27,178 bases of DNA, taken from an uncultured archaeon. GTDB taxonomy: Archaea; Asgardarchaeota; Heimdallarchaeia; Heimdallarchaeales; Heimdallarchaeaceae. The stretch's first letter is position 1, and each line of letters begins with the position of its first letter. The notes beneath the pieces were generated by a model, which was not told the DNA's origin, ran no database searches, and saw only the letters and a program-made list of their open reading frames with translations. The stretch covers positions 1-27,178 of the forward strand of contig CAZEQQ010000001.1 in assembly GCA_964514425.1 (NCBI GenBank). Reading direction: 5' to 3'. This document shows, one piece after another, positions 374 to 3,616 of this stretch. Both the position numbers and the translations under genes were made by a program.

Positions 374-1267
374 GTGACTATTATGAAAAAATATTGTTTG
401 ATAACCGATTCTGGAGCTGATTTAAGCAAAGAATTGATTGAGAAATATAAAATAAGAGTAAATCCCTTTTTTGTTATTCTGCCTGATACTGAAGAAAGCC
501 TAAAAGAAGGTGTAGATATAACGAATAAAGAATATTATGAAAGAGTACTAACGGCGAACAATCACCCTAGCACAGCACATGCAAATCCCCATGATATTTT
601 AGAATTATACAAAGCCTTAGAAAGTGAAGGATTTGAAGAGATTTTCTATGTTACTATGGCATCCTCAGTAACAGGAACAAACAATACAGCTCATCTTGCA
701 AAAAGACACTACTTGAGACAAGGAGGAAAAGCAAACATAACAATTTATGATTCAGCTCAAGCATCTATGGCAATAGGCATACAAGCAATTAAAGCTGCAA
801 AACTTTTTGAGGAAGGATTATCCGCGGAAGAAGTTGTAGAAAAGTTAAATCATTTTAGAATGAATGAGTTAAAGTCTACACTTACGGTTGAAACACTGAA
901 ATATCTCATGAAAAGTGGAAGAGTTAGTAAATTTCGATATGCTGTTGGAACAGCTTTAAAACTCACACCATGCTTAGAAGGGACATATAGTGGAAAATTA
1001 GAAGCTTTCGGAGCTGCAAGGTCATATGAAGCAGCAATTAAAAAAATAATTGATAGAGCATATAGTGACATTAAAACAAAAGCAAATTTGGCTGTTTACT
1101 TAACAAGTGGGAAAGCTGAGGAAGGTCTAAAAATTGCTAAAGAATATCTGAAGGAGAAATACAACCAAATAAAAATTTTGGGAGATTTGGATATCGGAGC
1201 ATCTATATTCACACATACAGGACCGGGTATAGTAGCTATAATAATGTTTCACTATTTTGATCATTAG
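374..1267 (+). CDS. DegV/FakB (EDD-domain) fatty-acid-binding protein; the real start is probably ATG 383
   Basis: ITDSGADL N-terminus, PSTA, MASSVTGT, IYDSAQASMAIG, LKYLMKSGRV and HTGPG match the DegV family pattern. Confidence 0.92.
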   Translation: MTIMKKYCLITDSGADLSKELIEKYKIRVNPFFVILPDTEESLKEGVDITNKEYYERVLTANNHPSTAHANPHDILELYKALESEGFEEIFYVTMASSVTGTNNTAHLAKRHYLRQGGKANITIYDSAQASMAIGIQAIKAAKLFEEGLSAEEVVEKLNHFRMNELKSTLTVETLKYLMKSGRVSKFRYAVGTALKLTPCLEGTYSGKLEAFGAARSYEAAIKKIIDRAYSDIKTKANLAVYLTSGKAEEGLKIAKEYLKEKYNQIKILGDLDIGASIFTHTGPGIVAIIMFHYFDH

Positions 1268-1529: not shown

Positions 1530-1922
1530 TTATTCTTTATTCTCGATGCAATTGAAAAGTTTGTTATGAATTTCAGCGAAATATTTATTGGCTTCATCAA
1601 ACAATTCGCTTCCAAATTCTGTTAAACTGTAATATTTTCGATCTAATCGTATACTGGATGCTTTAGATTCGACTCTTTCCACTATACCTTCTTTCTCCAA
1701 AAGATAGAGAACAGTATAATTAGTTACAGTGGCAGGACAAAAACCAAATCTTTCTTCAAATTCTTGTCTTAATTCATAAGCGTACTTTGGACCATCTTTC
1801 AATAATCTTATTACCCATAACCATAATGTGTCAATGGTAAGTTTTTTTTCTAAGCGTTGAAATGCTTTTGACTTTCTAGGTTCTAGAAGGTCATTTTCTA
1901 TATCTTCGGGATTCATTGGCAT
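1530..1922 (-). CDS. PadR-family winged-helix transcriptional regulator
   Basis: LWVIRLLKDGPKYAYEL...YTVLYLLEKEGIV...RKYYSLTEFG. Confidence 0.9.
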   Translation of the reverse strand: MPMNPEDIENDLLEPRKSKAFQRLEKKLTIDTLWLWVIRLLKDGPKYAYELRQEFEERFGFCPATVTNYTVLYLLEKEGIVERVESKASSIRLDRKYYSLTEFGSELFDEANKYFAEIHNKLFNCIENKE

Positions 1923-1942: not shown

Positions 1943-2494
1943 TTAAAAAACTTCAGTTATCCTAACTTCTTTTTCTAAGATACTTATTTCTTTAACTTTC
2001 AGTTCTGAGAGGAAATTTTGTTGTTGTGTATCTAGATCATTCTGACTACCCAAAATAAAACAAAGGGAAGAAGTTTTTTCAATTTCATTTAGAATGTAGT
2101 CGATTTTTTTACCCTCAGAGGTAAGGTAGTACAGCGTACAAGTTTCTTTTAACCTAAAAATGAGATCTTGAAAACCAATTGATTCTGATGTGCTTATGTT
2201 AGAATGTTTTTGATTTAACACATCTATAACTAATTGAAGTGCATCATATTCAGTATAAAGAGGAACGACGAGTTTTGATAACGAAAGAAAGTATGCACAT
2301 TGTTCGTCTTCGTGAGCCAAATAAAGGATTATGTTTACATCATAATTTGAACGCGAAGCAATATGACTTGTATTTAAGACACATCTAGCTAGAACATCAA
2401 CACGTTGGTAACCACTTGTTAAACTTTTAATATTTGTGTTCTGCTTGGATCTAACAGTAAAGGAAGGGATAAGGAAAGTTAGAGATGTTATCAA
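1943..2494 (-). CDS. trmY: tRNA pseudouridine(54)-N1-methyltransferase-like SPOUT protein, divergent with a short C-terminus
   Basis: RVDVLARCV, LYYLTSEG and FILGSQNDL resemble the TrmY motifs; TTG start. Confidence 0.7.
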   Translation of the reverse strand: MITSLTFLIPSFTVRSKQNTNIKSLTSGYQRVDVLARCVLNTSHIASRSNYDVNIILYLAHEDEQCAYFLSLSKLVVPLYTEYDALQLVIDVLNQKHSNISTSESIGFQDLIFRLKETCTLYYLTSEGKKIDYILNEIEKTSSLCFILGSQNDLDTQQQNFLSELKVKEISILEKEVRITEVF

Positions 2495-2647
2495 TTTACG
2501 TCATAAGTCCAGAATAAAGTAAGCTAAAAAGGTTATTGCTAAAACACATTATCAATTGCGGTTTAAGCTAAAAGGTTTAAGTGTAAACCTAGAATGTAAA
2601 GGAATTATTCTTACATATAGTTCAGTTATACTTTGATTTTAACCGTT

Positions 2648-2675
2648 TTAGGGAGTGAATTTTAAAACTCCTTAA
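2648..2675 (+). promoter_or_regulatory. 9-bp RNA hairpin 5' of the microprotein cassette
   Basis: TTAGGGAGT (2648-2656) pairs with ACTCCTTAA (2667-2675), including one G-U pair that works only on the + strand. Confidence 0.5.
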
Positions 2676-2690
2676 TAAAGGTGAGTCTCT

Positions 2691-2705
2691 ATGTATAGTA
2701 GGTGA
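2691..2705 (+). CDS. 4-codon leader ORF (MYSR*)
   Basis: SD GGTGAG at 2680-2685, ATG at 2691; its TGA (2703-2705) lies inside the AGGTGA SD of the next ORF. Confidence 0.4.
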   Translation: MYSR

Positions 2706-2711
2706 AAAAAA

Positions 2712-2828
2712 ATGGCAGAAAAAAATAAACAAAATCAAACAAATTGGAAAGAAAAAGAAAATGGAAAAGAATTCAGCAAAATAGAAATGCTAACCAAATT
2801 AGCAAAATATCAACTCATAGGAAATTAA
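2712..2828 (+). CDS. 38-aa microprotein A (MAEKNKQNQTNWKEKENGKEFSKIEMLTKLAKYQLIGN)
   Basis: AGGTGA SD followed by ATG; paralogous to the adjacent microprotein B; below the ORF-track size cutoff. Confidence 0.75.
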   Translation: MAEKNKQNQTNWKEKENGKEFSKIEMLTKLAKYQLIGN

Positions 2829-2846
2829 ACAAAAAAGGTGAAAAAA

Positions 2847-2966
2847 ATGGCAGAAAAAGTAAAAAGAAATGAATACAAAGAAAAAGAATTACGAGAATTG
2901 ACAAAAAAACTCTCACAAGTAGAAAGACTTACTCTTGAATCATTCTACAAATTGATTGGTGCATAA
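2847..2966 (+). CDS. 39-aa microprotein B (MAEKVKRNEYKEKELRELTKKLSQVERLTLESFYKLIGA)
   Basis: AGGTGA SD followed by ATG; shares MAEK.K.N..KEKE...S..E.LT....Y.LIG with microprotein A. Confidence 0.75.
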   Translation: MAEKVKRNEYKEKELRELTKKLSQVERLTLESFYKLIGA

Positions 2967-3050
2967 AATTATTATAATTCTATGTGCCTACTTTATTTAT
3001 TCTATTGCACTAAAATCACATACAATACCAATTATCATGAAATCATAAGG

Positions 3051-3086
3051 AAGGAGTTTCTAGTAAGACGTTCTTAGTCGCTCCTT
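3051..3086 (+). promoter_or_regulatory. Two-tier hairpin 3' of the microprotein cassette
   Basis: Outer stem AAGGAGT/GCTCCTT with one G-U pair; inner stem TAAGA-CGT-TCTTA. Confidence 0.4.
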
Positions 3087-3139: not shown

Positions 3140-3616
3140 ATGAGACCATCTATACATGAGTATTATTTAAAAATGACAGAACTTGTTGCTAGTAGGGCAA
3201 CATCACCACATAGAAAAGTTGGTGCGGTAATAGTACACGACAAACGTGTTTTAGCTACAGGGTACAATGGTGCCCCAAAAGGTTTCCCTCATGAAACGGA
3301 TGTAGGTTGTTGTCGCGAGGAATTGAAGAAGAAAGGAGAGATAAAGTCAGGGGAACGATATGAGTTGTGCACTGAGGTTCATGCAGAAATGAATGCAATT
3401 ATTCAATGTGCGCTATATGGTGTTTCTTGCCGAGATGCTACACTATATTGTTCAACTGTTCCTTGTACTATGTGTGCTAGAGTTTTAGTAAATGCTCAGA
3501 TTAGAGATATTTTTGTAATGAACGATGACATGGGTTTTGATGGGAAAGATTTTTTGAAAAAAGGGGGTATTCCCGTTTATATGATTATTGAGGGAGAAGT
3601 AAAAAGAATAATTTGA
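3140..3616 (+). CDS. dCMP deaminase (ComEB-like)
   Basis: VGAVIV, ATGYNG, HAEMNA and PCTMC zinc-deaminase motifs. Confidence 0.93.
   Translation: MRPSIHEYYLKMTELVASRATSPHRKVGAVIVHDKRVLATGYNGAPKGFPHETDVGCCREELKKKGEIKSGERYELCTEVHAEMNAIIQCALYGVSCRDATLYCSTVPCTMCARVLVNAQIRDIFVMNDDMGFDGKDFLKKGGIPVYMIIEGEVKRII

Follow-up and report, generated by a model that had tools for sequence, protein, structure and literature searches.

The seemingly empty gap between the genes for a TrmY-like RNA methyltransferase and a dCMP deaminase holds two small open reading frames, ORF A and ORF B, which very probably belong to a real protein-coding family. This lineage-specific family is an orphan of narrow distribution, with members in only three genera of one Heimdallarchaeota family, and it shows that a seemingly empty intergenic gap in Heimdall genomes can hold real genes. 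The window (the whole stretch of DNA that was analyzed, 27,178 nucleotides) was compared with its own assembly (3.36 Mb in 705 contigs, 32% G+C, 91% complete), with other archaeal genomes and with protein collections. Positions 2650-3007 of the window could be read as a self-contained two-gene operon, with a promoter, a Shine-Dalgarno (SD) site for each ORF and a hairpin with a U-rich tail. For this reading as a whole, the helix-based mechanism discussed below included, we place the chances a little under even. The features are as follows.

1943-2494, minus strand: TrmY-like RNA methyltransferase gene (PF04013)
2574-2589, plus strand: inverted repeat GGTTTA-AGTG-TAAACC, read from the sequence
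2652-2679, plus strand: putative promoter core, a palindrome GGAGT-N10-ACTCC around the TATA-like AATTTTAAAA (2658-2667), then a CTTAATAAA box (2671-2679)
2700-2705, plus strand: SD site AGGTGA of ORF A, six bases (all A) from the ATG
2712-2828, plus strand: ORF A, 38 aa, ATG at 2712 and TAA at 2826-2828, ending L-I-G-N (A-type)
2836-2841, plus strand: SD site AGGTGA of ORF B, inside the 18-nt spacer between the cistrons
2847-2966, plus strand: ORF B, 39 aa, ATG at 2847 and TAA at 2964-2966, ending L-I-G-A (B-type)
2958-3007, plus strand: terminator-like element, a hairpin (2958-2988) with the Gly-Ala-stop codons of ORF B as its 5′ arm, then a U-rich tail
3140-3616: dCMP deaminase gene (PF00383)

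The gap measures 645 bp, against the 640 bp given in the first-pass annotation, and both ORFs were found exactly where that annotation had placed them. As it had also proposed, the two start contexts are nearly identical: ATGGCAGAAAAA opens both ORFs after AGGTGA and an A-run. At ORF A, seven A residues lie between AGGTG and the ATG, the last six of which are the SD-ATG spacing. The two products are indeed paralogous, with 18 identities over 38 positions (47%, E 1e-7 in a single BLASTP comparison), and the DNA identity of their aligned codons is just 55%. Rfam covariance models gave no match at gathering score anywhere in the window, and a search of the window for tRNA and tmRNA genes found none. 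The pair also lies near the genes for ribosomal proteins S26e and S19.

The coding status of the pair was assessed from its homologues. The pair goes beyond chance: at the base composition of this genome, the chance of a 39-codon open frame is ~0.046, and all of the more than 45 distinct homologues collected from the three genera have an ATG, an SD site and an open frame of 30-42 codons. The length differences between copies are whole codons. In genus g3, column entropy at the first, second and third codon positions is 11.8, 8.3 and 17.7 over the conserved C-terminal 17 codons and 18.6, 16.2 and 19.6 over the N-terminal 23. The C-terminal core thus shows the classical coding pattern (position 2 lowest, position 3 highest), and the N-half evolves close to neutrally. 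The constrained residues are K4, the hydrophobic column 5 and the block S/N-x-I-E-Q-L-T-x-x-A-K/R, and the conserved C-terminal core reads S-R-I-E-Q-L-T-x-A-A-K. Selection at the protein level, proposed because the residue pattern is kept while the DNA has diverged, is borne out by this core. Pairwise dN/dS values, which are noisy for such short and AT-rich sequences, range from 0.04 to ~1; many pairs at 0.04-0.5 and the constrained core agree with that proposal, but the median of ~0.6 and the near-neutral N-half count against it.

The window's own genome (genus g1) holds at least 11 copies of the family at five loci, mostly as units of an A-type followed by a B-type copy:

Contig C1 (the window): A, B
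Contig C192: five consecutive copies, A, B, a short A-like copy, A, B
Contig C207: A, B
Contig C420: A, then a degenerate ORF
Contig C22: one solitary B-type copy

A-type products end in L-I/L-G/R-N and B-type products in I/F-G-A, and a short inter-cistron spacer with GGTGA is present in every array. ORF A of the window is 79-84% identical to the A copies on C192 and C207. In the family tree, ORF B of the window forms a sister pair with the second B copy on C192 (support 96/89), and the A and B of the first C192 unit are each sister to the A and B of C207. Because the A and B copies pair as sisters across these two loci, the A-B unit itself was duplicated. The family shows birth-and-death dynamics, with duplication of the A-B unit, tandem arrays, and gain and decay of copies. 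The first-pass annotation had described a duplicated microprotein family, and these copies, together with arrays or single orthologues in two related genera, strengthen that description.

The distribution of the family was surveyed by searching a 47-sequence profile against 83 genomes of the class. In genus g2 the family is present in both genomes, with 4-7 copies per genome in arrays of 2-4; the two genomes have two syntenic arrays in common, which differ in copy number (2 vs. 3 and 2 vs. 4). In genus g3, which includes the MAG AB_125, a single copy is found in 23 of the 25 genomes, and in the three g3 genomes compared it is flanked by an MFS transporter gene and an Exo_endo_phos gene. Within the same family, the profile matched nothing in genus g4, represented by two closed genomes, or in genus g5, and neither has such an ORF upstream of its Exo_endo_phos orthologue; the gene is therefore dispensable in these two genera. 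Six further families of the class, with 52 genomes searched, likewise gave no match. When HMMER was run against 1.84 billion representative proteins, 18 matches were obtained, of which 17 are true members (all 30-41 aa) and the eighteenth is a spurious repeat protein of 697 aa. Metagenome contigs added a few members, including one frameshifted and one without a stop codon, and a promoter-pattern search of IMG/VR viral contigs found no family member. Contrary to the refuting outcomes of missing homologues and disrupted frames named at the outset, homologues exist, and they have intact frames and SD sites. No conserved gene neighborhood was found across genera. The trmY-dcd adjacency of the window is not kept in relatives, and because of this an insertion event could not be shown.

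The promoter and leader of the family are more conserved than the N-half of its products. In an alignment of 28 first-in-array upstream regions from three genera, the DNA is near-invariant from about -75 to the ATG. The blocks follow in the order AGTTTAAC; a TATA-like AATTTTAAAA or AATTAATTAAAA; C-T-T-(T)-AATAAA; a ~19-nt leader; and TAGGTG with an A-run; the stretch TAGGTG(A/C)-A-run-ATG hardly varies among family members. A palindrome surrounds the TATA box of several copies, GGAGT-N10-ACTCC in the window; elsewhere, in several genera, it takes the near-perfect form AAGGAA-TTTTAAAA-TTCCTT. Folded as RNA, the promoter palindrome gives a z of -3.4, although transcription most likely starts downstream of it. 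Within the window's own genome the promoter module occurs only in front of family members; a shared regulon was rejected, since the module is found nowhere else there. A search for the promoter-plus-start DNA pattern in 185,579 species genomes returned 43 stretches, 25 of which are family members in Heimdallarchaeota MAGs. The copies on C420 and C22 have a different upstream region with a TGACCA-N5-TGGTCA palindrome; three such sites are present in the genome (0.4 expected), and two of them precede family members. Repeats of the GGTTTAA type, as at 2574-2589, recur ~100-130 nt upstream of other first-in-array copies, and with low confidence the GGTTTA-AGTG-TAAACC repeat could be a regulator site. 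A four-codon leader ORF (ATG TAT AGT AGG TGA) was also considered; it is shared by just the three close paralogues within this genome, whereas g2 and g3 lack it or have another version, and it is probably incidental to the conserved 5′ leader.

Downstream of ORF B, the hairpin has a predicted RNA fold of -10.1 kcal/mol (z -1.8). Both B genes of C192 end likewise, with other stem sequences followed by a T6 run, so that a hairpin plus T-run is seen in three loci. A scan for bacterial-type terminators found none. The hairpin and U-rich tail may act as a terminator, and it may be this RNA structure, not the protein, that keeps the conserved Gly-Ala end of the B-types in place. Judged from the DNA, the promoter is probably dedicated, strong and repressor-controlled, and would drive a bicistronic mRNA.

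Each product is predicted to be one continuous amphipathic α-helix of ~32-36 residues. AlphaFold2, run on monomers with the 47-sequence alignment, models ORF A as one uninterrupted helix over residues 2-37 (mean pLDDT 75), and a monomer model of a g3 orthologue has a helix over residues 7-38 (mean pLDDT 77; 83-91 over residues 11-30), a single helix being nearly the default output for a 40-mer with a shallow alignment. The hydrophobic columns 15/16, 19, 23, 26, 29, 33 and 37/38 are spaced by 3-4 residues, with a periodicity peak at 100-120 degrees. In the predicted helix, Lys, Gln, Asn and Glu abound in a variable N-terminal half, and the C-terminal half carries the conserved face I26, E27, Q28, L29, T30, A33 and K/R34. 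This agrees with the charged N-half and amphipathic C-helix first described from the two ORFs, the conserved part being the C-terminal helix. GRAVY values range from -0.15 to -1.4 and the pI is near 10 in most members. Residues 1-20 of ORF A include ~5 Lys vs. 4 Glu, which leaves its N-half nearly charge-neutral; in the g3 orthologues, five of the first 14 residues are Lys. The members checked have no Cys, signal peptide, transmembrane segment or hydrophobic stretch, and members lack a Cys- or Ser-rich core. The product is most probably not secreted, modified or membrane-spanning.

The first-pass annotation had recognized no family for the pair, and comparison with known families leads to the same result. 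Pfam returned no family for six members at E values up to 10, and hmmsearch with the 47-sequence profile found no match among PDB sequences at the same limit. NCBIfam gave one chance-level match (E 0.089) for one of 23 members, PADLOC matched one of 47 members (E 0.013, not significant), PHROGs yielded only scattered matches with E above 0.005 to unannotated families, and the ESM Atlas only unnamed clusters below the reliable score. The pair is not a fragment of a larger, decayed gene: apart from the spurious 697-aa repeat protein, the profile searches of the own genome and of the 1.84 billion proteins match only proteins of 30-41 aa, and a 458-aa frame in G007 is of low complexity. The neighbors of the family encode DegV, PadR, TrmY-like methyltransferase, dCMP deaminase, S26e, MFS transporter, Exo_endo_phos, HEAT-repeat, GNAT, DUF5054 and DUF1846 proteins, a set of housekeeping and transport functions with no relation to one another; no C39-peptidase ABC transporter and no modification enzyme, export, immunity or defense gene was found in the neighborhoods inspected.

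Several known systems resemble the family in design. The CopG/Arc/MetJ mini-repressors resemble it in size (~40-50 aa), in their basic N-terminus and S-R-x-E-like helix cap, and in having a palindrome within the promoter of their own gene, and a ribbon-helix-helix fold was considered for this cap and for the Arc-like I-G-A end. It was rejected: a PF01402 search of the genome retrieved six other genes and none of the 11 family copies, hhalign of the family alignment against the ribbon-helix-helix alignment of the same genome gave a probability of 0.1%, and, unlike these repressors, the AlphaFold2 monomer models have neither a strand nor a helix break. Double-glycine class II bacteriocin leaders and NHLP/Nif11 precursors share with the family a helical segment, the L/I spacing and, in many copies, a Gly-Ala or Gly-Asn end. 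In the family, however, the stop codon comes directly or 1-4 residues after Gly-Ala or Gly-Asn, so that there is no core peptide, no C39 transporter lies nearby, and the C-terminal residues vary across members (GN, GA, RN, NY, SA, AN, AY, GC, GAIK). A Pup- or ubiquitin-like C-terminal tag was rejected on the same variability, and because nothing follows these residues.

In Firmicutes, enterocin L50A/B and psm-alpha are encoded by tandem peptide genes, each with its own ribosome-binding site, under one promoter. They are like the family in being tandem, paralogous, helical peptides of ~20-45 aa without a signal peptide; they differ in that theirs act on membranes, are hydrophobic or rich in Trp, and are encoded beside export or immunity genes, whereas the family's are hydrophilic and without such neighbors, and genus g3 keeps a single conserved chromosomal copy. 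A leaderless or two-peptide bacteriocin or a phenol-soluble modulin therefore fails on hydrophobicity (GRAVY -0.15 to -1.4) and on gene context. AtpTheta and NblA of cyanobacteria and small protein 26 of Methanosarcina mazei, of ~20-60 aa and mostly helical, dock onto a larger enzyme or complex. They too are small cytosolic helical peptides with dedicated promoters, but they have no sequence relation to the family and are single genes with known partners, whereas the family is amplified in arrays. Eukaryotic bZIP proteins have a single continuous helix, a polar or basic N-part, a heptad-like C-part and a promoter palindrome, a resemblance of design only: the family has ~40 residues, its N-part is unconserved and not always basic, and no homology was found.

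We tentatively favor a cytosolic helix-pairing or docking mechanism, which we regard as possible but short of likely. The peptide would be cytosolic, well expressed and regulated, and unable to fold alone. Its C-terminal helix would self-associate, join its operon partner in an A-B coiled coil or small bundle, or dock into a groove of some conserved partner in the cell; solubility or electrostatic contacts would come from the charged, fast-evolving N-half. Pairing of the helix with itself, the operon partner or another protein is the simplest reading because a 35-residue amphipathic helix is not stable alone. A bolder version, in which the Heimdallarchaeota-born family is an abundant single-helix protein forming homo- or hetero-oligomers that regulate a core machine or its own promoter DNA, is speculative and improbable. 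It would include, for example, a miniature basic-zipper-like autoregulator or a docking peptide for a eukaryote-like system (cytoskeleton, ESCRT or chromatin, for instance), with A and B as combinatorial pairs.

Other readings were weighed against the same evidence. A DNA-binding or chromatin-type autoregulator, similar to a mini basic zipper, would dimerize through the C-terminal heptads, place its basic N-half in the major groove and bind the palindrome around its own TATA box. The pI near 10 in most members, the five Lys in the first 14 residues of the g3 orthologues and the continuous predicted helix are as expected, as are the near-perfect palindrome AAGGAA-TTTTAAAA-TTCCTT around the TATA box in several genera and the TGACCA-N5-TGGTCA palindrome upstream of two other copies (three sites vs. 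0.4 expected). We nevertheless consider it unlikely: the N-half of ORF A is nearly charge-neutral, the N-half is the least conserved part, the opposite of what a DNA-reading region should be, a zipper of ~24 residues and a basic part of 14 fall short of the usual bZIP, a ribbon-helix-helix fold was rejected, and no homology to any DNA-binding family was found. Alternatively, the gene might be young and self-propagating, evolving largely neutrally and doing little or nothing for the cell, or it might be a non-coding RNA with incidental ORFs. Its orphan distribution, median dN/dS of ~0.6 with a near-neutral N-half, flux in copy number, decayed copies, and a promoter and leader more conserved than the N-half of the protein would all fit. 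The single syntenic copy that 23 of the 25 g3 genomes retain although these genomes are incomplete, the coding signature of the core (variability low at position 2 and high at position 3), the start codon, SD site and frame kept in more than 45 distinct copies, and the absence of any Rfam match render this decidedly unlikely.

A peripheral, lipid-associated amphipathic helix, like membrane-targeting sequences and tied to the expanded DegV fatty-acid-binding proteins, is suggested by the Lys-flanked amphipathic C-terminal helix and by three of the five own-genome loci, which lie within ~2.5 kb of one of 12 DegV paralogues, DegV being the sole neighbor that recurs. This proximity is not a recent block duplication, because the DegV paralogues are just 23-30% identical to each other. 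The hydrophobic face, however, is narrow and includes Thr, Gln and Ala, the mean hydropathy is negative, no DegV gene lies beside the single-copy gene of g3 and the nearest in g2 is 6-7 kb away, and we rate the membrane helix as very unlikely. Rated about as low is a small basic protein associated with the ribosome or translation, be it a hibernation factor or an accessory protein of the ribosome: small size, a basic, Lys-rich N-terminus, a strong promoter and SD site and the S26e and S19 genes near the window copy speak for it, but the family occurs in only three genera and is absent from close relatives, its copy number is variable and its sequence fast-evolving, other loci show no consistent linkage to ribosomal genes, and no ribosomal family is matched. 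Least probable of all is an exported or modified peptide, that is, a double-glycine-leader or RiPP precursor, a leaderless two-peptide bacteriocin, a toxin or a defense peptide. Tandem ~40-aa paralogues with their own SD sites do resemble two-peptide bacteriocin and phenol-soluble-modulin operons, and many copies end in Gly-Ala or Gly-Asn; yet no core peptide follows this widely variable end, the peptides are strongly hydrophilic without a signal or transmembrane segment, no transporter, modification, immunity or defense gene is nearby and neither NCBIfam nor PADLOC gave a significant match, and the gene is single-copy, syntenic and chromosomal in g3 and was not found in viral contigs. The modified-peptide precursor, toxin and phage-defense roles listed in the first-pass annotation are disfavored for these reasons and for want of a Cys- or Ser-rich core; the heteromeric regulator or chromatin-type binder listed with them is a possible role.

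Few known archaea are as closely related to eukaryotes as the Heimdallarchaeia, whose small proteins are, to our knowledge, essentially unexplored; orphan small proteins as such are common. The signature of the present family is unusually clean: it has a conserved promoter of its own and a helix face of 10 strictly conserved residues, and it is kept as a single copy in one genus and expanded into arrays in two, which makes it a tractable test case for the origin, amplification and functional gain of lineage-specific Asgard microproteins. The peptides are short enough for chemical synthesis, so that structure, oligomerization and partner binding could be tested without culture, and if the function proves trivial the family is still a useful marker. 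No description of this microprotein family was found in the literature. The pair had been called unannotated, which can hold at most for the record that was read: peptides A and B are both present, exact and unnamed, in public gene-call collections (NCBI, JGI/IMG, ENA).

The microprotein arrays of the sister-genus (g2) type recovered from metagenomes (loci L134, BART01006462.1; L171, JABUBN010000640.1; and L179) show signs of decay. One third copy carries a frameshift after 7 codons, another copy has lost its stop codon so that the frame reads on, and in one the C-terminus is altered. These decayed copies are evidence of birth-and-death turnover.

At 3 of the 5 loci in the window's own genome a paralogue of DegV (fatty-acid-binding, PF02645) lies within ~2.5 kb:

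Window 374-1267, DegV paralogue
Contig C207, 115-1023, DegV paralogue
Contig C420, 2156-2875, DegV paralogue

This genome holds 12 DegV genes, a high count for an archaeon, and the linkage was not found in the AB_125-like genus, beside its single-copy orthologue. Two further neighbours were recorded:

Window 1530-1922, strand opposite to the cassette and ~800 nt upstream of it, PadR-family regulator gene
Contig C192, 1-600, leucine-rich-repeat protein gene truncated by the contig end, on one flank of the five-copy array

Since the PadR-family regulator showed no linkage to family copies at other loci, it is probably unrelated to the cassette. Genes with DUF5054 and DUF1846 domains occupy the other flank of the C192 array.

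The C420 and C22 copies of the same genome have an upstream region that differs from that of the other copies (loci L071 and L072 cover both sites):

Contig C420, 2079-2127, region with a TGACCA-N5-TGGTCA palindrome
Contig C22, 4559-4607, region with a TGACCA-N5-TGGTCA palindrome

At both, a third TGGTCA half-site is found ~32 nt gene-proximal to the palindrome, and the whole genome contains 3 such palindromes vs. 0.4 expected. The element looks like an operator for a putative dimeric regulator.

At the loci of the AB_125-like genus (e.g., L064:8427-8549, contig C1 of genome G012), the microprotein gene is convergent with an MFS transporter gene, and only ~6 nt separate its end from the transporter stop codon. 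With this spacing, the pyrimidine-rich terminator region of the microprotein gene would lie antisense to the transporter gene's 3′-end.

In the window, a mini-ORF of 4 codons (ATG TAT AGT AGG TGA, 2692-2706) overlaps the SD of ORF A. It is retained only in the three close paralogues of this genome and is missing or altered in the copies compared from the other genera (the sister and AB_125-like genera), so that it is probably incidental, a by-product of a conserved leader. Between the U-rich tail of the cassette and the dCMP deaminase start lies a second hairpin:

Window 3051-3086, AAGGAG...CTCCTT hairpin, -11.3 kcal/mol, z -1.5

This hairpin may be part of the deaminase promoter or leader.
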